Shown here: positions 47,965 through 59,082 of the stretch, piece by piece
Layout of the letters: each line of letters begins with the position of its first letter
Position numbering within the stretch: the stretch's first letter is position 1
Assembly: GCF_055900595.2 (NCBI RefSeq)
Contig: NZ_CM148325.1
Direction: 5' to 3' (one strand)
DNA length: 64,000 bases
Translations under genes and position numbers: made by a program
The notes under the pieces: generated by a model
Databases searched by the model: none
What the model was told of the DNA's origin: nothing
What the model saw: the letters and a program-made list of their open reading frames with translations, nothing else

Positions 47965-48858
<894 letters not shown>

Positions 48859-49237: not shown

Positions 49238-50797
49238 TTATTTAATATCTTTCACGCGCATACCGTTGATCTGTTCATCCGTGATGGTGTTACCCGCTTT
49301 AAAGTAATCAACCACCGCGTGATAAACGTAATAACCGCCCGTCGTATTGCGCGCTTTACCCTCGGTAAACGCGGTAAAACCATCTCCACCATCAGCAAGG
49401 AAACTCTGAGTAGCAATGTGGTAAACCGTCGCATCTTCAATCGGTTTGCCATTCAGCGTCAGCGAGATAACCCGCTGACCAACCGGCTTGCTGCTGTCGT
49501 ACTTCATTTCCAGGCCTTTCGATACCTGTAAAACGCCATTACTTAAACTTGCGCCGTGTTCCATCAAACCGCGTAATTGTTTACCCGTGAGTTCCATCGT
49601 CACCAGTTCGTTGGGGAACGGGAAGGTACTGATGACGCCACCCATCGTAATTGCACCCGCCGGGATCTCATTGCGAATCCCACCAGAGTTGGTTAACGCC
49701 AACTGGGTATTTTTACCCGCCGCTACCAGTAAAGCGTCCGCCGCCAGGTTCCCCAGGGATGCCGATTCACCATAGGCACGTTTTAATTCAACTGGCGATT
49801 GCGCCACCGTTTGCTGCACGACTTCATCCAGCTTTTTATTCCAACTATCAATCACCTGTTTTGTTTGCGCATCGGGCTTCCACTCGTCGGCGTAAAGGGT
49901 TTTAAGCTCGAAGTTTTTCACCGTAAAAGTGTGCGGTTTCTCTTTGTAGTCGAGAACCAGTTTACCCACATCAATCCCACCGCTGTCAGTGGAGAGGATG
50001 AGCGTATTGCCGACTTTAATCGGTTCCGGCGTACCCACATGTGCATGCCCGGTGATCAAAATATCCAGCCCTTTCACCTGACTTGCCGTCTGAATATCTT
50101 TATCCAGTGCGCGGCGCACATCTGTGCCCCCCATACTGGACTGGCGGGCCGGAACACCTTCGTGAATCAGCGCAACGGTCAAATCAACCTTGCCTTTGAG
50201 TTCATCGATATAACGTTGTAGCCATTTAATTTCATCACGCGCCTCAATACCCACTCGCGTTGCCGCAGATACCGTATCATTAAAGGCAAATACACCGTGC
50301 AAACCTATAACACCAATTTTCACGCCGTCTTTTTCAATAATGGTATATGGCTTATCCCAGAATGATTTACTGCTGTTCTGATAAAAAACATTACCCTGCA
50401 CAATCGGGAATTGTGCCTGACTCAACTGTAATAACGTATTGTCCCAGCCGTGATCAAATTCATGATTACCTATAGTGGCCGCATCGAACGGCATGGTATT
50501 CATAATATCGATAATCGCCTTGCCTTTAGTCAGGCTGCTGATATACGGCCCGGTAAAATAGTCACCCGCATCAAAAAACCAGGTCGCTTTGTTTTTAGCT
50601 TTTTCTTGTTTAACAAGCGTAGTGATATTTGCCCAGCCGCCAATATCCCGTTTACCCTCAGCAATCCACGGCACTTTATAGGGCTCTACATGTGCGTGGA
50701 GGTCATTGGTATAAATAATGGTGACATCTTTGGCGCAGGCCCAAAACGGCAGTGTTAATGCGATACCCGCAGCAAGCATTTTAATTTTCATAAACAA
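49238..50797 (-). CDS. secreted 5'-nucleotidase / UDP-sugar hydrolase family metallophosphoesterase (UshA-like), paralog 1
   Basis: 519-aa ORF with a signal peptide ([18 protein letters not shown]), calcineurin-like motifs ([30 protein letters not shown]) and a C-terminal 5'-nucleotidase domain with the FPF nucleobase clamp. Start may be M3 or M7. Confidence 0.8.
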
Positions 50798-50923
50798 TCC
50801 CTTCCAGTGAGATAAAGGATTGCTACATTACGTTCTGAAAGGCTTTTTTATGTGAGAATACTCACATCCAGAGGCAATAACTGTAGGACAAAATCGACGA
50901 CCTTATGAAATCGTTGGTGATAT

Positions 50924-52051
50924 ATGTCAAATCTGTTTGCGATTAATGTCTGTAAAACGTTCGGTTGTCGAAATTTGGGATTGGCCTCATCGGAAGATTA
51001 CAGTTGGCCAGACTATAAACTGGGTTTTCCGGCACTGCACTGCCAGGCATGCGGAAGTTACCCCCCTTTGTTTGATGAACAACAATTTCGTGACTGGTTG
51101 TCAGTTCACATGACTGCGTGTGCCATAGAAACAGGGCATTTTTGTCCATCATGCTATTGTAAAGAAAAGATTTTTTATGGCCACAACCCGCATGGAACAC
51201 AACGCGTTCAATGCCGTTCATGCAAAAAAGTCTGGACTCCGAAACAGCAGCCAGCAAGAGAAATTACGTATCCCCAGTCCATTGAAACCGTTCAACTGTT
51301 CATGCCCTTTCAAGGAGCCAGCGCACTACAAAAGCTCTATGTTTTAGTCAGTCTTGACGCCACTCGTGGCAACATCCTTCATCTCTCCACGAATTATACG
51401 CAACATCAGACAGGAGACAGTCTGCGGTACAGTTACAGAGGCAATACAGAACCAACTGAGCACCATAGCGATATTGTGCAGAGGGTAGATATGCGTGAAG
51501 CGCAATTCTTGCGCCGGAGCCAGTTCGATGAAATTCAGTATGGCAGTGCTGTGCTCAAGCGCAATGGCAAGGGAGCCATACTACGCCCGGTTATCACGGC
51601 TCACGGGCATTTCAGAATACTGAAAATCCGCTTTCCACATGTCAAAACGCATATCATTTCACACGAATGTTTTCTGAGAGGCGCAATTATTACAGCCTGG
51701 GCAGATCAGTTCCGCCAACAACAAGGCGAACTTTGGTTCGTAGAAGAAGAAATCAGCGACCGTAACGCTGATATTCCCTGGCATTTTCAGGGAACGACAT
51801 ACCATGGTTGGTGGCAAAATCAGTGGCAACGCTGGGGGCAGGGGAATAACAGCAAGATGGTCTGCCTGCTCACAGGAGTCTCCTTAGAAAGGGGCGCAAA
51901 TGTTTCTCTGGCAACCAGTCGTTGCTTTATCACATGGCTGACAGACCAACACGACTTTACCCAAAGCGCGTTATTATCCGCAGGTCGCGTAACGAAAATG
52001 CTGACCTCACTGGCGTTAAAATACAATGAATCGCTCACTCCATCTTGTTAG
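50924..52051 (+). CDS. hypothetical Cys-rich protein with a transposase-type zinc-ribbon motif
   Basis: 375-aa ORF. N-terminal Cys pairs (CKTFGC, HCQACG, FCPSCYC, QCRSCKKVW); the segment CPSC...GTQRVQCRSCKKVW resembles the IS1/IS1595 transposase zinc ribbon. No recognisable DDE triad or HTH seen by eye. Confidence 0.5.
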   Translation: MSNLFAINVCKTFGCRNLGLASSEDYSWPDYKLGFPALHCQACGSYPPLFDEQQFRDWLSVHMTACAIETGHFCPSCYCKEKIFYGHNPHGTQRVQCRSCKKVWTPKQQPAREITYPQSIETVQLFMPFQGASALQKLYVLVSLDATRGNILHLSTNYTQHQTGDSLRYSYRGNTEPTEHHSDIVQRVDMREAQFLRRSQFDEIQYGSAVLKRNGKGAILRPVITAHGHFRILKIRFPHVKTHIISHECFLRGAIITAWADQFRQQQGELWFVEEEISDRNADIPWHFQGTTYHGWWQNQWQRWGQGNNSKMVCLLTGVSLERGANVSLATSRCFITWLTDQHDFTQSALLSAGRVTKMLTSLALKYNESLTPSC

Positions 52052-52280
52052 TCAATACACTCGACAAACGACCATAAATTAATGGGATCACTATTTCTCA
52101 TTTAATTAAATATATGAATGTATGACTGAAAAATATAATCACAGTCAATGTTTAATTAATAACATTATTTGTTACTAAGATCACATAATACTTTCCTGAC
52201 CTATGCTTACATAAAAATAAGACACGGAGTTCCTTTTATTTAAATAATTCAACCAATGTAACAACCCCTATCAAGGAGGG

Positions 52281-53834
52281 ATGATGAGAACTGTATTTAC
52301 GACTTTATCAGTCATATTCAGCGTGATGTTTTCTCACAGTATACTAGCTCAGGACGTTACTATTTATTATACGAATGATATTCACGCACATGTCAATCCG
52401 GCAAAAATTCCCGCTGTTGATAAGAACAGACTTGTAGGTGGTATGGCTAATATTGCAGGCATCGTTAATGAAGCGAAGAAAAAAAACAAAGATGTCTTTT
52501 TCTTTGATGCAGGCGACTATTTTACCGGTCCGTATATCAGTACCCTGACCAAAGGTGAAGCTATTATTGATATCATGAACACCATGCCCTTTGATGCGGT
52601 GTCCGTTGGTAATCACGAGTTCGATCACGGCGTGCCCAATATGGTATCTCAGTTATCAAAAGCAAAATTCCCCATTCTGCTGGGAAATATTTACTACACC
52701 GATACAAATAAACCAGTTTGGGATCATCCGTGGACTATTATCGAAAAAGATGGTTTAAAGATTGGTGTGATTGGATTGCATGGTGCATTCGCTTTCTATG
52801 ATACAGTCGCGGCAAAAGCACGTGAAGGCGTAGAAGCCAGAGACGAAATTAAATATTTAAATAAAGCACTTGCAGAATTAAAAGGTAAAGTCGACATTAC
52901 CGTTTTGCTAATTCACGAAGGTGTTCCGGCGCGTCAATCAAGCTTTGGTAGTAAAGATGTGGAGCGGCTACTACAGGCAGATATTGAGACAGCTAAAAAA
53001 GTGAATGGTGTTGATGTCTTAATTACCGGTCACGCACATGTCGGAACACCGCAACCAATAAAAGTTAATAACACATTAATTGTATCTACCGATGCATACG
53101 GCACCGACATCGGAAAACTTGTGCTTGATTACAATCCGAAAACGAAGAAAATTGATAGTTATAATGGTGAGTTAATCACCATCTTCGCAGATCAATTTAA
53201 ACCTGACACCATCGTTCAAAATACTATCGATAAATGGAGTGCAAAGCTTAACAAAATAACACAGGAAGTTGTCGGCCATTCTCCCGTAGTTTTAACACGT
53301 GAGTATGGCAGTTCTTCTTCTACCGGTAACCTTATTCTTGATGCAATGATGGAAAAAACACCAGATGCCATTGCCGGATTTCAAAATAGCGGTGGGATGC
53401 GAGCTGATTTTCCTAAAGGTGATATCACGCTGGGAGATGTTATTAGCACATTCCCCTTTAATAATGACCTCATCGAGATGGATTTGACGGGCCGCGATCT
53501 CAAATCGTTGATGACGCATGCAACCAATCTAACTAACGGTGTGTTACAGGTTTCAAAAAGCGTTGCGGTTGTCTATGACAGCAAAAAACCACTGAACCAA
53601 CGGTTAATCTCTTTCACCATTAACGGCAAACCCGTGGAAGATAATCAAACATATCGTATTGTCACGCACTCCTTTTGTGCCAGTGGTGGTGACGGTTTTG
53701 AAGCATTTTTGAATGGAAAAAATGTGAAGACGATACCGGGAACAACCTCGGCGGAATCTATCATCGATTATTTCAAAAATCATAAACCTGTCACCCCAGA
53801 CTTAACTAAACGAGTAATGGACGTCGCCAAATAA
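52281..53834 (+). CDS. secreted 5'-nucleotidase family metallophosphoesterase (UshA-like), paralog 2
   Basis: 517-aa ORF with a signal peptide (MMRTVFTTLSVIFSVMFSHSILA-QD) and the same catalytic motifs (YTNDIHAH, GDYFTGP, GNHEFD, GHAHVG, TFPF); the most divergent of the three copies. Confidence 0.8.
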   Translation: MMRTVFTTLSVIFSVMFSHSILAQDVTIYYTNDIHAHVNPAKIPAVDKNRLVGGMANIAGIVNEAKKKNKDVFFFDAGDYFTGPYISTLTKGEAIIDIMNTMPFDAVSVGNHEFDHGVPNMVSQLSKAKFPILLGNIYYTDTNKPVWDHPWTIIEKDGLKIGVIGLHGAFAFYDTVAAKAREGVEARDEIKYLNKALAELKGKVDITVLLIHEGVPARQSSFGSKDVERLLQADIETAKKVNGVDVLITGHAHVGTPQPIKVNNTLIVSTDAYGTDIGKLVLDYNPKTKKIDSYNGELITIFADQFKPDTIVQNTIDKWSAKLNKITQEVVGHSPVVLTREYGSSSSTGNLILDAMMEKTPDAIAGFQNSGGMRADFPKGDITLGDVISTFPFNNDLIEMDLTGRDLKSLMTHATNLTNGVLQVSKSVAVVYDSKKPLNQRLISFTINGKPVEDNQTYRIVTHSFCASGGDGFEAFLNGKNVKTIPGTTSAESIIDYFKNHKPVTPDLTKRVMDVAK

Positions 53835-53868
53835 AATATCATTTATCAGTCTATTTATTTAACAAGGA

Positions 53869-55494
53869 ATGCGAATGAAAACAGTGCAGCGTACTTTACT
53901 TGCCGCAACATTGCTGACTATTTTTTCGGTCTCAGCCATGGCGCAGGATGTCACGATTATTTATACCAATGATCTTCACGCTCATGTGGATTCTTATAAA
54001 GTGCCGTATATCGCAGACGGAAAACGCGACATTGGCGGCTTTGCCAATATATCTACTTTAGTAAAACAAGAGAAAGCGAAAAATAAAGCCACCTTTTATT
54101 TTGATGCTGGAGACTATTTCACCGGCCCTTATATCAGCAGTCTGACAAAGGGCGAAGCAATAATTGACATTATGAATACCATGCCTTTTGACGCAGTATC
54201 AATCGGTAATCATGAGTTTGACCATGGCTGGGATAATGCCCTGCGACAATTAAGCAAAGCGAATTTTCCTGTTTTATTGGGCAATGTTTATCATAAAGAG
54301 AGTGAGAAACCCTTCTGGAACAAGCCCTACACCATCCTGGAAAAAGATGGCATCAAGATTGGTATTATTGGGCTACACGGCGTATTTGCATTTAATGATA
54401 CGGTCTCGGAGCTCTCTCTCCAGGGACTCGATAATGACAATAATAACCGCTTTGATAAATCTTCCGAGACCCTTAAGAATCAGGGGATTGAAGCACGTGA
54501 TGAAGTGAAGTATTTGCAGCATTATATCGACGAGTTACGTGATAAGGTTGACCTCACTGTGGCGCTGGTTCATGAAGGCGTTCCGGCGCGTCAGTCCAGC
54601 ATTGGCAATACAGATGTTAGACGCGCTCTTGATAAAGATATTCAAACCGCTAGCAAGGTGAAAGGATTGGATATTCTGATTACCGGGCATGCCCACGTCG
54701 GAACGCCAGAGCCAATCAAAGTCGGCAACACCTTAATCCTTTCAACTGATAGTGGCGGTATCGATATTGGTAAATTAGTCCTTGATGTCAACCCTACAGC
54801 TCGTACCCATAAAATGAAGAGCTTTGAGCTGAAAACAGTTTATGCCGATGAATGGATACCCGATCCAACGACACAAAAAGTTATCAATGGCTGGAATAAA
54901 AAACTGGCGGATATTGTACGCCAACCAGTGGGTGAATCATCGATTGCATTAACTCGCGCCTATGGTGAGTCATCGCAACTAGGCAACCTGTTTACCGATG
55001 CAATGCTTGTCGCTGCTCCGACTGCACAGATTGCATTGATAAACTCCGGCAGCTTACGTGCGGATATAAATGCAGGCACGATTACCTTTGGCGACATTAC
55101 CAGTACATTCCCCTTCAAGAATGAACTTACTGAAATGGATCTCAGCGGTAAGGATCTGCGTAACCTACTGGAACACGGGGCATCGCTTACCAATGGCATC
55201 CTGCAAATGTCAAAAGGCGCAGAAATGCGCTATACCCCGCAGAAACCAGTAGGTCAGCGCATAGTATCTTTTAAAATTAATGGTGAAGAGATCGTTGATA
55301 CGAATATTTACCATGTTGCAACAACGACTTTCCTTGCACTGGGGGGCGATGGTTTTCTGGCATTCAAAGAAGGGAAAAATGTTCAGGTCCGCGCCGGAAA
55401 TAACATGTCCGATGTCGTGATCGATTATTTGAAGAAAGGCCACAAGATTACGCCTGCACAGGTAAATGAAATGCGGGTGGACGTTAGCAAATAA
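53869..55494 (+). CDS. secreted 5'-nucleotidase family metallophosphoesterase (UshA-like), paralog 3
   Basis: 541-aa ORF with a signal peptide (...FSVSAMA-QD) and the same motifs; very similar to paralog 1 (roughly three-quarters identical by eye) but with an extra roughly 24-aa Asn/Asp-rich insertion (ELSLQGLDNDNNNRFDKSSETLKNQG). Confidence 0.8.
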   Translation: MRMKTVQRTLLAATLLTIFSVSAMAQDVTIIYTNDLHAHVDSYKVPYIADGKRDIGGFANISTLVKQEKAKNKATFYFDAGDYFTGPYISSLTKGEAIIDIMNTMPFDAVSIGNHEFDHGWDNALRQLSKANFPVLLGNVYHKESEKPFWNKPYTILEKDGIKIGIIGLHGVFAFNDTVSELSLQGLDNDNNNRFDKSSETLKNQGIEARDEVKYLQHYIDELRDKVDLTVALVHEGVPARQSSIGNTDVRRALDKDIQTASKVKGLDILITGHAHVGTPEPIKVGNTLILSTDSGGIDIGKLVLDVNPTARTHKMKSFELKTVYADEWIPDPTTQKVINGWNKKLADIVRQPVGESSIALTRAYGESSQLGNLFTDAMLVAAPTAQIALINSGSLRADINAGTITFGDITSTFPFKNELTEMDLSGKDLRNLLEHGASLTNGILQMSKGAEMRYTPQKPVGQRIVSFKINGEEIVDTNIYHVATTTFLALGGDGFLAFKEGKNVQVRAGNNMSDVVIDYLKKGHKITPAQVNEMRVDVSK

Positions 55495-55504
55495 TAAAAA
55501 AATT

Positions 55505-55540
55505 ATAATGCCATTCATTCACTGAATGGCATTATTTTTC
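55505..55540 (+). terminator. intrinsic terminator after nucleotidase paralog 3
   Basis: Hairpin AATGCCATTCA-TTCAC-TGAATGGCATT followed by ATTTTTC. Confidence 0.7.
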
Positions 55541-55572
55541 TCTAAATCAACAATAAATAATGAGATATATTT

Positions 55573-56433
55573 ATGTGTATAAAAAAGCACGGGATAGCTT
55601 TATCGATTCTATTAATACCTTGCATTGGAAACGCTCAGGAAATTAAAAGTGAGGAAGGCTGGTTACATCAAAGCTTGAATGTCATTGGTCGCACAGACTC
55701 TCGCTTTGGCCCAAGGCTGACTAACGACCTCTACCCTGAATATACTGTAGCAGGAAGAAAAGACTGGTTTGATTTTTATGGTTATGTTGATCTACCAAAA
55801 TTCTTTGGCGTCGGCAGTCACTATGATGTTGGGATCTGGGATGAGGGCTCACCACTATTTACGGAAATAGAACCTCGGTTTTCCATTGACAAATTGACCG
55901 GATTAAATCTTGCGTTCGGCCCTTTTAAAGAATGGTTCATTGCAAACAACTATGTCTATGATATGGGTGACAACCAGTCATCCCGGCAAAGTACATGGTA
56001 TATGGGGCTTGGTACAGATATCGACACGGGTCTACCAATTAAGCTTTCTGCCAATATATACGCCAAGTATCAGTGGCAAAACTATGGTGCCGCTAATGAA
56101 AATGAATGGGACGGATATCGATTCAAAATAAAATATAGCATTCCTCTTACCCATTTATTCGGAGGGCGATTGGTATACAATAGTTTTACTAACTTTGATT
56201 TTGGCTCCGATCTTGCGGACAAATCACACAATAATAAACGAACCAGTAATGCTATTGCTTCAAGCCATATCCTTTCCCTGCTATATGAACACTGGAAATT
56301 TGCATTTACACTACGTTATTTTCACAACGGTGGACAATGGAATGCTGGGGAGAAAGTTAACTTCGGAGATGGTCCATTTGAATTAAAAAACACAGGATGG
56401 GGAACCTATACTACTATTGGTTATCAATTTTAA
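55573..56433 (+). CDS. Tsx-family outer-membrane nucleoside-specific channel (paralog of tsx)
   Basis: 286-aa ORF with a signal peptide ([23 protein letters not shown]). Long blocks match E. coli Tsx as I recall it ([83 protein letters not shown]), and the C-terminal aromatic residue is typical of beta-barrels. Confidence 0.85.
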
Positions 56434-56649: not shown

Positions 56650-59082
56650 CTACAACAACTGCGCCAGACGGTTAATATCCGACTGAATCGCCCCAGCGGT
56701 GACGTCGCGCCCTGCACCTGGCCCGCGGATCACCAGCGGGTTGTCGCGATACCAGCGGCTTTCGATGGCAAAGACGTTATCGCACGGTAGTAGTGATGCC
56801 AGCGGATGGTCTTCACGCACCGCTTCCACGCCCACTCGCGCTTTGCCGTTGGCATCGAAACGCGCCACGTAGCGCAACACCAGCCCCATTTCACGGGCCG
56901 CTTCCAACCGTTGTACCATCTGCTCATTAAGTTCATCGCCATTTTCAAAGAAATGGTCGATGCTTCCACCTTCGCAATGGGTTGGCACCAGTGATTCAAC
57001 ACGCACCTGGTCCGGTTCAATGTTGTAACCCGCTTCACGCGCCAGAATCACCAGCTTGCGCATCACATCTTTGCCGGAGAGGTCATCACGCGGGTCAGGT
57101 TCAGTTAAGCCCTGCTGCCACGCCTGATCCACCAGCTCAGTAAACGGCACGCTACCGTCGAATTGCAGGAACAGCCAGGAGAGCGTGCCGGAGAAGATCC
57201 CGCTGATCGACAAAATAGTGTCGCCGCTGTCGATCAGATCGCGCACGGTATGGTTGATCGGCAAACCTGCGCCGACGGTGGCGTTGTATAGCCAGTGACG
57301 CCCGGTTTTTTCGAACGCGTCGTGGATCTGGCGATATTTATTGCTGTCGCTCGCTCCCGCCAGTTTGTTGGCACTGATGACGTGGAAACCGTGGCTGGCG
57401 AAATCGAGATACTGATCAGCAAGCTGCTGGCTGGCAGTAACGTCCAGCACAACTAAATCATCATACGGATGGGCACGCATCCACAGGAATAGCGACTCTT
57501 CATCCTGTTCGACGGCTTCATCATTAAAGAAGGCTAGCGCACGGCTGGCGTCCAGCCCGTCATAGCTCAACAGGCTGCGACGGCTGTCCACCACGCCTGC
57601 CAGCACAAATTCAAAGCCGGTGCGCGCCGAGAGCGTGCTCTGCTCACGGGCGAACAGTTCCAGCCAGCGGGAACCGATATTGCCCTTACCGAACAATACC
57701 AGGCCGATGCGTTTTTCTGCGCGGAAGACGGACTGATGCAGCCCCTGAATCAGGCTTTCGGTCGGGCCGGTGCGCAGTACTGCCACCAGGCTGATGCCGT
57801 CATCGGACTGCCAGGTAAACTCGACCGGCTGGCCTTTCAGTTGCTGCCAGAAGCGGTGGCAATGCAGCGGGTTACGGGTGACGCCCGCCCCAACCATCGC
57901 CACCAGCGCCAGCCCCTGACGCAGACGCAGTTCGCCGGGTAATCCTGCTTCGTCGAGGATTTTCAGCGCACTGTCGGCCACTTCCGAGGTGTAGCAAAAT
58001 TGCAGCAACTGGCGATCGTTATGCACGCCAACTGCCAGTGGGCGCACCTGAGCACGTTTCAGGATTTGGTCGATCTCTTTATGCGCCAGTTTAAAATCCT
58101 GACTGGCGGGCACCTGAAACTCAATCAAACAGACATCATCGTGGCTGGTGACAATACGCGCGCCAGTACCTGAGGCCAGCACGCGTTCAATGCGCGTGGA
58201 ACCTTGATCCGGCGTGTAGCTACAGCGCAGCTGCAGGTCGATTTCGCTGCCAGAAACTGGCTGTAAAGTACGGGCGTGAAGAACGGGGGCCGCCAGACGC
58301 GCCAGTTCGCTGGCTTCATCCAGACGCAGCAACGGCAGCAGGCAGGCGTCTTTCACTTTACGCGGGTCGGCGCTATATACCCCGGCGACATCGCTCCAGA
58401 TGGTTACGCGGGAAACTCCCGCCAGCGCACCGATTTGTGTCGCGGAATAGTCGGAACCGTTACGCCCCAGCAGCACCGTTTCACCGGCGTTGTTGCGGCT
58501 GATAAATCCGGTCACCACCAGGCGTTTGCCCGGATGTTGCACCAGTAGTTGTTGCAGCAATGGGTACGAAAGGCCTTCATCAACCTGTGGTTGCGCGGCA
58601 CGTTCAGCGCGTAAAAACTCGCGGGCATCAAGCCAGGCCGCAGGCAATCCTTGTTGATTAAGCACCGCAGACATTAAGCGTGCCGACCACACTTCCCCGT
58701 GGCCCACCACTTCTGCATACACCGCATCATTAATACCGCTGTCGAGCAGCGCCGCGAGGCGTTCCAGATCGCTGACAAAGGCGCTAATGAGGCTATCGGC
58801 TTCTTCGGCGGGTAGCAGGCCGCTAATCAGATCGCACTGATAGCGACGCAGCGTTTGTTGAACCTGATGCGCAGAGAGACGATCGGCCTGGCTTAGTTTC
58901 AACCAGTTAATCAACTGGTTAGTGGTGCTACCGGCGGCGGAAACCACCATCATATCGTCAGGCTGAGAGTACTCCGCCATAATGCCCGCGACACGCAAAT
59001 AACACTTCACATCAGCCAGACTACTGCCACCAAATTTATGCAGTTGACGACCTTTCGCCCCTGCCTGCGCAATCACACTCAT
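56650..59082 (-). CDS. metL: bifunctional aspartokinase II / homoserine dehydrogenase II
   Basis: 810-aa ORF (MSVIAQAGAKGRQLHKFGGSSLADVKCYLRVAGIMAEY...) with an N-terminal aspartokinase domain and a C-terminal homoserine dehydrogenase domain. Confidence 0.95.
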   Translation of the reverse strand: MSVIAQAGAKGRQLHKFGGSSLADVKCYLRVAGIMAEYSQPDDMMVVSAAGSTTNQLINWLKLSQADRLSAHQVQQTLRRYQCDLISGLLPAEEADSLISAFVSDLERLAALLDSGINDAVYAEVVGHGEVWSARLMSAVLNQQGLPAAWLDAREFLRAERAAQPQVDEGLSYPLLQQLLVQHPGKRLVVTGFISRNNAGETVLLGRNGSDYSATQIGALAGVSRVTIWSDVAGVYSADPRKVKDACLLPLLRLDEASELARLAAPVLHARTLQPVSGSEIDLQLRCSYTPDQGSTRIERVLASGTGARIVTSHDDVCLIEFQVPASQDFKLAHKEIDQILKRAQVRPLAVGVHNDRQLLQFCYTSEVADSALKILDEAGLPGELRLRQGLALVAMVGAGVTRNPLHCHRFWQQLKGQPVEFTWQSDDGISLVAVLRTGPTESLIQGLHQSVFRAEKRIGLVLFGKGNIGSRWLELFAREQSTLSARTGFEFVLAGVVDSRRSLLSYDGLDASRALAFFNDEAVEQDEESLFLWMRAHPYDDLVVLDVTASQQLADQYLDFASHGFHVISANKLAGASDSNKYRQIHDAFEKTGRHWLYNATVGAGLPINHTVRDLIDSGDTILSISGIFSGTLSWLFLQFDGSVPFTELVDQAWQQGLTEPDPRDDLSGKDVMRKLVILAREAGYNIEPDQVRVESLVPTHCEGGSIDHFFENGDELNEQMVQRLEAAREMGLVLRYVARFDANGKARVGVEAVREDHPLASLLPCDNVFAIESRWYRDNPLVIRGPGAGRDVTAGAIQSDINRLAQLL

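Follow-up and report, generated by a model that had tools for sequence, protein, structure and literature searches.

Why does one of three neighbouring 5'-nucleotidase paralogs of E. coli carry a segment that the other two lack, and does the segment alter what the enzyme does? The question is raised by the 64,000-nucleotide stretch of contig NZ_CM148325.1 (assembly GCF_055900595.2) that was analysed here, hereafter the window, in which a first-pass annotation had picked out an Asn/Asp-rich insertion in the third paralog. The three genes are positioned as follows.

49238-50797, minus strand: paralog 1, comparator without the insertion, corresponding to the crystallised c4898 protein (PDB 3IVD/3IVE); identified from the ORF, alignment and a structure match.
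52281-53834, plus strand: paralog 2, comparator without the insertion, directly upstream of paralog 3; identified from the ORF, alignment and Pfam.
53869-55494, plus strand: paralog 3, c4898-type 5'-nucleotidase gene, 541 aa; identified from the ORF, Pfam, a PDB match and RefSeq.

Judging from its domains, motifs and predicted two-domain fold, paralog 3 is a member of the 5'-nucleotidase/calcineurin-like metallophosphatase superfamily. In RefSeq the gene starts 6 nt later, giving 539 aa, and is named 'bifunctional metallophosphatase/5'-nucleotidase'. The product contains an N-terminal Metallophos domain (PF00149, 43.7 bits against a Pfam gathering cut-off of 21.5) and a C-terminal 5_nucleotid_C domain (PF02872, 127.7 bits against 23.6). 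An AlphaFold2 model built from a 70-sequence alignment (mean pLDDT 86) matched 3IVD with an E value of 3.8e-87 and TM scores of 0.89/0.96; it also matched CD73, UshA and the Thermus 5'-nucleotidase, and was nearer to closed CD73 (TMq 0.74-0.76) than to open CD73 (0.52-0.54). The following elements frame the segment under study, and the conservation given for each motif was read from the same 70-sequence alignment.

53869-53943, plus strand: probable Sec signal peptide, MRMKTVQRTLLAATLLTIFSVSAMA followed by QD, read from the sequence.
53968-53985, plus strand: metallophosphatase motif I, NDLHAH, residues 34-39, with N34, D35 and H37 invariant.
54205-54222, plus strand: motif GNHEFD, residues 113-118, the last catalytic motif ahead of the insertion, with G113 to D118 invariant.
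54571-54579, plus strand: motif HEG, residues 235-237, the first metal-ligand motif past the insertion, with H235 and G237 invariant.
54685-54696, plus strand: motif GHAH, residues 273-276, with G273, H274, A275 and H276 invariant.

The N-terminus shows a basic start, a hydrophobic core and an A-x-A cleavage motif, and was modelled as a helix at residues 3-22 with low pLDDT; because a Sec signal peptide is probable, the enzyme is probably periplasmic. The DAGD motif (79-82) and the substrate motifs of the C-terminal domain (N392/S393/G394/R397, F416 and GGD at 492-494) were also present, and all motif columns were invariant with the exception of L36, E236, H39 and F496, each of which was conserved to at least 90%. 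With these motifs intact and a predicted structure resembling closed CD73, paralog 3 looks catalytically competent.

The insertion was delimited by paralog alignments and by a codon alignment of orthologues.

54409-54477, plus strand: the inserted segment ELSLQGLDNDNNNRFDKSSETLK, residues 181-203, in place of three residues in paralogs 1 and 2.

When the three paralogs are aligned, 23 residues of paralog 3 (ELS...TLK) stand opposite three in paralog 1 (AAT) and three in paralog 2 (AKA), so that the insertion first recognised against paralog 1 is genuine and is absent from paralog 2 as well; its net size, however, is 20 aa (60 nt) rather than the approximately 24 aa proposed at first. An equally good register places the insert at 54427-54486 (LDN...NQG), following a retained 'QG'. 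The stretch covering both registers, 54409-54486, translates to ELSLQGLDNDNNNRFDKSSETLKNQG in the frame of the 541-aa ORF at 53869-55494. The insert lies within the N-terminal metallophosphatase domain, as proposed; it falls between GNHEFD and HEG. Its description as Asn/Asp-rich also held, with these two residues making up 8 of 26 positions (31%) against 13% in the remaining mature protein (binomial P = 0.015), and DNDNNN is the sole run of at least four Asn/Asp residues across the three paralogs. The term low-complexity fits only weakly, as the least complex stretches of paralog 3, by 12-residue entropy, lie elsewhere. The GC content of the insert DNA is that of the gene.

It is hardly credible that the segment is artefactual or scar-like, be it a wrong frame, an assembly error, what is left of a mobile element or a hypervariable tract prone to slippage. 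The frame of the insert is correct, because its flanks align with the paralogs in the same frame of a continuous ORF and because substitutions among the orthologues are mostly synonymous; in addition, the same segment is shared by four genera and by hundreds of complete genomes, and the alleles of paralog 3 contain no indels. These observations ruled out a wrong frame, misassembly and a hypervariable tract. Searching 5,426 E. coli genomes with the insert DNA (word size 11, E at most 1) gave no copies beyond a single locus per genome, and the insert is therefore neither a repeated nor a mobile element. A scar would nevertheless agree with the two copies of CAGGG, at 54421-54425 and 54481-54485, which lie 60 nt apart like a target duplication or the ends of a tandem duplication, and with the in-register match between the insert and the 60 nt upstream of it (20-25 of 60 positions identical, whereas other offsets average 15.4 +/- 3.5). 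This duplication signal is not significant, because in E. coli an equally good match is reached at 12% of other offsets. The insert may have originated in an ancient tandem duplication of 60 nt. At the nucleic acid level, the RNA folding of 54395-54500 was no better than that of shuffled sequence (z = +0.41), and promoter-like hexamers within the insert were dismissed, since they matched at 9 of 12 positions and such sites were fewer in the region than in shuffles.

The insert did not vary in length among the 658 complete E. coli genomes that carry paralog 3 or across four genera, and it was also found in the orthologues of E. albertii, Citrobacter and Enterobacter. Every orthologue with at least 81% identity possesses it, as does a paralog-1/paralog-3 chimera (P0015, 75% identical), while it is absent from all of the approximately 100 homologues compared at 73% identity or below. 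As judged from the sequence phylogeny, the insertion has a single origin: with the insert columns removed, the 15 insert-bearing proteins formed one clade in 50 of 50 neighbour-joining bootstraps, and their sister clade, from Cronobacter and Atlantibacter, lacks the insert.

The first-pass annotation had further suggested that the segment might be a site of variation, a view contradicted by its invariant length and by purifying selection on its sequence. In most orthologue pairs, pS within the insert was 0.4-1.0 compared with a pN of 0-0.24, corresponding to a dN/dS of about 0.02-0.16, and the rest of the gene gave a dN/dS of 0.03-0.09. Within E. coli, amino acid changes in the insert were seen solely at residues 200-201. 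Purifying selection means that the segment matters; a role in substrate choice does not follow from it. These data bear on the simplest explanation, namely that the insert is a tolerated and essentially functionless surface loop fixed by chance in one paralog lineage, which we regard as unlikely. A 13-residue core (GLDNDxNNRFDKS) and the overall length have stayed nearly or entirely fixed, respectively, despite synonymous sites that are nearly saturated between genera, and five hydrophobic positions are conserved among the orthologues (L182, L/I184, L187, F195 and L202). Such constancy argues against neutrality, even if the constraint on the insert is somewhat weaker than that on the remaining gene in several pairs and if the AlphaFold model shows it as low-confidence coil (pLDDT below 50 at residues 182-204, with just two short helical turns). 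Loop length in the family argues in both directions. Of 189 family domain copies, taken from a set of 150 representatives obtained by clustering at 50% identity, 159 have a loop of 7-8 residues and 186 one of 5-13 residues, and the 28 residues of paralog 3, where paralog 1 has the short loop VSAATRVG, are the longest; the insertion is therefore not common to all family members, and loop length is otherwise tightly limited. On the other hand, unrelated insertions of 22, 19 and 12 residues occupy the same site in three distant relatives (P0178, P0259 and P0216, respectively), as would be expected of a site that tolerates additions.

The position of this loop was then read from a profile alignment to CD73, which is gapless from the conserved D-E of the next helix back to the loop and in which the residues replaced by the insert align with S185-N186-P187 of CD73. 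Ser185 and Asn186, in the N-terminal lobe of CD73, form a pocket of the interdomain cleft that is touched by the base substituents of inhibitors (PMC8403083, PMC13077603). By this homology, the insert is probably located at the rim of the substrate cleft, in a place equivalent to the Ser185/Asn186 loop, although with a pLDDT below 50 it could point away from the cleft. The earlier suggestion of a surface loop accordingly needs to be divided: a loop is plausible in view of the low model confidence, but an arbitrary surface site is at odds with the alignment to a cleft-rim loop.

We give about an even chance to the explanation that the insert is a selected enlargement of this cleft-rim loop that alters substrate recognition or domain closure. 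A loop normally of 7-8 residues, corresponding to the 'SNPG' loop of classical 5'-nucleotidases, has gained a net 20 residues in the N-terminal metallophosphatase domain of one lineage of probably periplasmic c4898-type 5'-nucleotidases. The gain occurred a single time, in the ancestor that the paralog-3 orthologues of Escherichia, Citrobacter and Enterobacter have in common, and the insert has been kept since then, its length fixed and its core nearly so. In the closed enzyme, the loop would lie on the N-domain rim of the interdomain cleft beside the base of the bound nucleotide, where the insert may serve as an additional lid or recognition element that shifts either the accepted nucleotide (its base or leaving group) or the closure of the domains. 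The insert may thereby help the three co-resident paralogs to cover different ranges of substrates in an island for nucleotide/nucleoside scavenging.

The first-pass annotation had also raised metal binding, a further reading that is suggested by the composition of the conserved core and is compatible with a cleft lid.

54430-54456, plus strand: core DNDNNNRFD, residues 188-196, nearly invariant among orthologues and EF-hand/DxDxDG-like.

In this reading the insert would be a structural or regulatory Ca2+ site, with D188, D190, N192, the backbone of R194 and D196 as candidate ligands, as in EF-hand and DxDxDG loops; we consider it possible but rather unlikely. The orthologues follow the pattern D-N-[DN]-x-[NS]-[NH]-R-F-[DS], which retains oxygen donors at loop positions 1, 3, 5 and 9 (D188 invariant, D/N at 190, N/S at 192 and D/S at 196) together with a hydrophobic residue at position 8, and leaves position 4 freely variable (N/K/E). 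Short helices predicted at residues 185-188 and 200-203, with low AlphaFold confidence, flank the core, and Ca2+ is available in the periplasm, where the enzyme probably resides. In these respects the core shares with EF-hand and DxDxDG loops the acidic/amide pattern, the hydrophobic position 8 and the flanking helices; it differs in that residue 199, at position 12, is S/A/G in all orthologues and position 13 is E/A, so that the canonical bidentate Glu/Asp is absent. The missing twelfth ligand would have to come from water or a distant residue, and in the periplasmic galactose-binding protein the twelfth-position Ca2+ ligand is indeed supplied from elsewhere. The Phe at position 8 presumably falls outside the PROSITE EF-hand pattern, which would count against a Ca2+ site, as does the low AlphaFold confidence across the putative loop. 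No Pfam family was matched by the insert, whether or not its flanks were included, at a threshold as loose as E = 10 (the speed filters of HMMER may hide very weak matches), and phmmer with the same threshold found no match to the insert among all PDB chains. The D-x-D-x-N-N-x-F-D core might bind Ca2+ without being a canonical EF-hand.

The genomic neighbourhood of paralog 3 offers another perspective.

55573-56433, plus strand: Tsx-like nucleoside channel gene, a constant neighbour of the insert-bearing nucleotidase, identified by Pfam Channel_Tsx (E = 4.9e-70).

The product of this gene scored 491.8 bits with the NCBIfam Tsx model (cut-off 311). A tsx-like gene adjoined the insert-bearing gene in all five genomic contexts examined, in both gene orders and including a minimal two-gene locus, and the insert-less relatives examined (the Cronobacter sister gene, a lone paralog-1-like gene and a lone paralog-2-like gene) had no tsx neighbour; this sample is small and was picked via paralog 3. 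The association would be expected if the insert were a docking element for a partner, such as the co-encoded Tsx-like channel or another envelope protein. We find this quite improbable, as the adjacency is already explained by a shared nucleotide-to-nucleoside scavenging pathway, the contexts were few and selected through paralog 3, and a 13-bp hairpin with T-runs parts the two genes in E. coli. Very improbable, too, is the broader proposal that the insert is a self-contained module (a non-canonical Ca2+ switch or a docking loop) coupling the activity or location of the nucleotidase to the Tsx-like outer-membrane channel; if true, it would imply a physically coupled unit of nucleotide hydrolysis and nucleoside transport in the envelope of extraintestinal pathogenic E. 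coli. The same island has already been described as GR 31 (metL..metF) of ExPEC/APEC strains, containing one Tsx-like ORF and three UshA-domain ORFs of 1620, 1551 and 1554 bp, for which a coordinated nucleoside processing and transport system was proposed (PMC12928451). The passages of that paper considered here do not mention the insertion that lengthens the 1620-bp ORF.

Returning to the enlarged cleft-rim loop, if this explanation is true, the insert would be a simple determinant of substrate preference that sets one of three co-resident periplasmic 5'-nucleotidases apart, and it would help to explain why ExPEC-type E. coli (536, Nissle 1917, ST95, APEC) maintain three paralogs together with an extra Tsx channel; if it is false, the insert represents routine paralog divergence. 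The insert is a modest and ordinary example of enzyme diversification, and its function is putative.

Among known systems, the closest is c4898 of E. coli CFT073, a putative 5'-nucleotidase crystallised with uridine (3IVD) and cytidine (3IVE), which is 67% identical to paralog 3 and shares with it the two-domain fold (TM 0.96, target-normalised), the catalytic and substrate motifs and the island. The two differ in their partners, a 375-aa hypothetical gene for paralog 1 and tsx for paralog 3, and in their frequency among complete E. coli genomes (1843 with paralog 1, 658 with paralog 3). Searches of the literature for c4898/3IVD and for adjacent CFT073 locus tags brought up nothing but unrelated papers. 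UshA of E. coli and NadN of Haemophilus influenzae are, like paralog 3, periplasmic enzymes of nucleotide scavenging that combine a metallophosphatase with a 5'-nucleotidase C-terminal domain, but both lack the insert, and the alignment of paralog 3 with UshA breaks at the insert loop. Assignment of paralog 3 as UshA (equivalog NF007109, 156.3 bits against an NCBIfam cut-off of 600) or as the NAD nucleotidase NadN (TIGR01530, 121.6 bits against 436) was rejected. Human ecto-5'-nucleotidase CD73 (NT5E) belongs to the same superfamily and has the same fold, and its loop Leu184-Ser185-Asn186-Pro187 aligns with the insertion site; it is approximately 24% identical to paralog 3, its loop is short with an SNPG motif and, unlike paralog 3, it is a GPI-anchored eukaryotic dimer. 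Because this homologous loop of CD73 is exploited by high-affinity inhibitors, the natural loop enlargement of paralog 3 provides a small, useful data point on how the pocket of these enzymes may be tuned.

The window belongs to an E. coli chromosome and contains an island of approximately 7.5 kb flanked by metF and metL, with a G + C content of 43%, compared with 50% for the whole window. The genes of the island and its borders are as follows:

47965-48855, minus strand, metF, island border
49238-50797, minus strand, paralog 1, 5'-nucleotidase of 519 aa
50924-52051, plus strand, hypothetical protein of 375 aa
52281-53834, plus strand, paralog 2, 5'-nucleotidase of 517 aa
53869-55494, plus strand, paralog 3, 5'-nucleotidase of 541 aa
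55573-56433, plus strand, Tsx-like channel gene
56650-59082, minus strand, metL, island border

Paralog 1 is the counterpart of the crystallized protein c4898 (PDB 3IVD/3IVE). All three paralogs score below the NCBIfam equivalog cut-offs for UshA, NadN and CpdB and therefore form a separate c4898-type subfamily. Paralog 3 lacks none of the metal-ligand and catalytic motifs (NDLHAH, DAGD, GNHEFD, HEG and GHAH) or the C-domain motifs (NSG..R, STFPF and GGDGF), and almost every residue of these motifs falls in an invariant column. Its N-terminus resembles a Sec signal peptide, suggesting that the enzyme is probably periplasmic. The 375-aa protein, Cys-rich at its N-terminus, matched no Pfam family, and its only hit, below threshold, was to the zinc-finger region at the N-terminus of IS1 transposase (E = 7e-4, 19.6 bits versus a cut-off of 100); a similar-sized Pfam-less gene, divergently oriented, accompanies the paralog-1-like gene in all clusters seen to contain such a gene. 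In addition, paralog 3 and the tsx-like gene are separated, from stop codon to start codon, by 78 nt that hold a perfect palindrome with a 13-bp stem (55505-55535, ATAATGCCATTCA-TTCAC-TGAATGGCATTAT) and T-runs on both strands, which could be a bidirectional terminator, an attenuator or a protein-binding site.

Translated in the frame of paralog 3, positions 54409-54486 read ELSLQGLDNDNNNRFDKSSETLKNQG. In the three-paralog alignment, paralog 3 has 23 residues (ELS...TLK) against three in paralogs 1 and 2, between the strongly conserved flanks FAFNDTVS and GIEARDE. The insertion of approximately 24 aa proposed in the first-pass annotation is therefore real, but the net gain is 20 residues (60 nt). 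Its description as an Asn/Asp-rich low-complexity segment holds for composition, as Asn and Asp make up 31% of the segment versus 13% of the remaining mature protein (P = 0.015, a moderate enrichment), but only weakly for complexity, as the segment lies outside the lowest-entropy stretches of the protein. DNDNNN is the sole Asn/Asp run of at least four residues across the three paralogs. The G + C content of the insert is the same as that of the gene, and the predicted RNA fold of the region is no better than that of shuffled sequence (z = +0.41). An old tandem duplication would fit the pentamer CAGGG (encoding Q-G), which is found at both ends of the insert with a spacing of exactly 60 nt, and the in-register identity of 20-25/60 to the preceding 60 nt; however, this identity is not significant against other offsets (15.4 +/- 3.5).

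Among the best 120 database relatives, all proteins with at least 81% identity, including those of E. coli, E. albertii, Citrobacter and Enterobacter, carry the segment at exactly equal length, and all those with at most 73% identity are without it, the sole exception being a chimeric protein, P0015. In a neighbor-joining tree calculated with the insert columns removed and P0015 left out, the 15 insert-bearing proteins formed one clade in 50/50 bootstraps, and their sister was an insert-free Cronobacter/Atlantibacter clade reading S-AxM-RQGIEARDE at the site. The insertion therefore arose once. For a broader survey, 1.84 billion cluster representatives were searched with HMMER, yielding 150 diverse relatives whose 189 domain copies were aligned to a family profile, with the loop measured from Thr of NDT to Ile of GIE. 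Of these copies, 159 had a loop of 7-8 residues and 186 a loop of 5-13; the outsized loops were those of paralog 3 (28), one domain of relative P0178 (22) and relative P0259 (19). The site is normally tightly limited in length, and unrelated insertions have been accepted a few times.

P0015 is encoded at the paralog 1 position of an E. coli draft assembly (GCA_001520995.1; locus L009, 3398-5011). Its ends are ~98-100% identical to paralog 1, and its middle (roughly residues 100-200, insert included) is ~92-100% identical to paralog 3; the contig stops ~350 nt past paralog 2, inside paralog 3. Either gene conversion involving the inverted paralogs or faulty assembly may account for this chimera, and no complete E. 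coli genome carries the insert twice.

Probes of 701 nt and 86 nt spanning the insert each matched 658 of the 5,426 complete E. coli genomes, always as a single full-length piece, one per genome, at 95-100% identity; strains 536, Nissle 1917, ST95 and APEC isolates are among the carriers. The most divergent class shows substitutions only, with amino-acid changes limited to residues 200-201, and the alleles are SSETLK, SSATLK and SSAPLK. Single full-length matches in 658 genomes and substitution-only alleles rule out an artefact or a variable tract. The suggested site of variation is likewise refuted, since the length is constant in these genomes and across orthologues with at least 81% identity. 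Across the three E. coli alleles compared, E/A at residue 200 and T/P at residue 201 (54466-54471) constitute the whole insert polymorphism; these residues are also among the most variable insert positions between genera.

When seven orthologues extracted from their contigs were aligned by codon, the 23 inserted codons showed pS of 0.4-1.0 between genera and pN of 0-0.24, and dN/dS, where computable, was ~0.02-0.16 in the insert versus 0.03-0.09 for the remainder of the gene. The core G-L-D-N-D-x-N-N-R-F-D-K-S is nearly invariant among orthologues, hydrophobic positions are conserved (L182, L/I184, L187, F195 and L202), and the changes cluster at residues 191 and 199-201. The insert is part of the working protein.

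The alignment of a profile from 70 family members with human CD73 is ungapped from the loop up to the conserved D-E that opens the next helix. The residues replaced by the insert fall on Ser185-Asn186-Pro187 in the SNPG loop of CD73, a motif also present in the Thermus enzyme 2Z1A. In CD73 co-crystals, Ser185 and Asn186 of the N-terminal lobe line a pocket in the interdomain cleft that is contacted by substituents on the inhibitor base (PMC8403083; PMC13077603). By homology, we infer that the insert extends from the rim of the substrate cleft on the N-domain side. The AlphaFold2 model of paralog 3 (mean pLDDT 86; TM 0.96 to 3IVD) is nearer to closed than to open CD73 (TMq about 0.75 versus 0.53). 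Within the insert it shows no more than two short turns of helix (residues 185-188 and 200-203), with pLDDT < 50 at residues 182-190 and 192-204, so that the surface loop suggested initially is reasonable. A further segment of 18 residues follows the HEG motif (residues 240-257; 54586-54639) in all c4898-type relatives; ~16 of its positions lack an equivalent in CD73 and the Thermus 5'-nucleotidase in the profile alignments, and residues 240-246 have pLDDT < 50. It is a subfamily-wide insertion, separate from the paralog-3-specific insert.

In residues 188-196 (D-N-D-N-N-N-R-F-D), side chains with oxygen donors occupy positions 1, 3, 5 and 9 of an EF-hand loop, with a hydrophobic residue at position 8 and free variation at position 4, as expected in EF-hand-type loops. 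However, S, A or G occupies position 12, E is found at position 13 in only some E. coli alleles, and the peptide had no match among Pfam profiles or PDB chains. As for the metal binding suggested initially, a canonical EF-hand is ruled out by position 12 and the missing matches; a DxDxDG-type site, or one like that of galactose-binding protein, in which the last ligand is supplied from elsewhere, is possible by analogy.

A tsx-like gene adjoins the insert-bearing gene in every genomic context compared, with varying gene order. The pair lies between metF and metL in E. coli and Citrobacter enshiensis; in E. albertii it belongs to a cluster of four nucleotidase genes plus tsx near kdsA/chaA; in two Enterobacter genomes it is at another chromosomal site, and in assembly L006 it makes up the entire locus. 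The E. albertii cluster (L004, 3004-10611), near kdsA, chaA and narXL at a different site from that of E. coli, encodes nucleotidases of 518, 522, 520 and 536 aa, with tsx before the insert-bearing gene, whose N-terminal signal sequence resembles that of E. coli paralog 1 (..LPLWACAKE). No tsx neighbor was seen in the insert-free relatives examined, which were the Cronobacter sister gene, a lone paralog-2-like gene, and the pair of 375-aa hypothetical gene and paralog 1 that stands alone in ST131 E. coli and Kluyvera. Among the 5426 complete E. coli genomes, paralog 1 occurs in 1843 and the par2-par3-tsx block in only 658. From these differing contexts and counts, the island (49238-56433) is modular, with paralog 3 plus tsx as one module. 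This pairing is explained most simply by a shared pathway; a physical link between the paralog 3 product and the Tsx-like channel has a low probability.

The best-supported reading is that the insert is a selected enlargement of a cleft-rim loop, which would set the substrate handling of paralog 3 apart. The insert variant is new, having been previously undescribed, and the enzyme family and the island are already known: paralog 3 shares 67% identity with c4898 (3IVD/3IVE), and the island corresponds to 'GR 31 (metL..metF)' of ExPEC/APEC strains, which a 2026 paper (PMC12928451) suggests to be a system for handling and transporting nucleosides.
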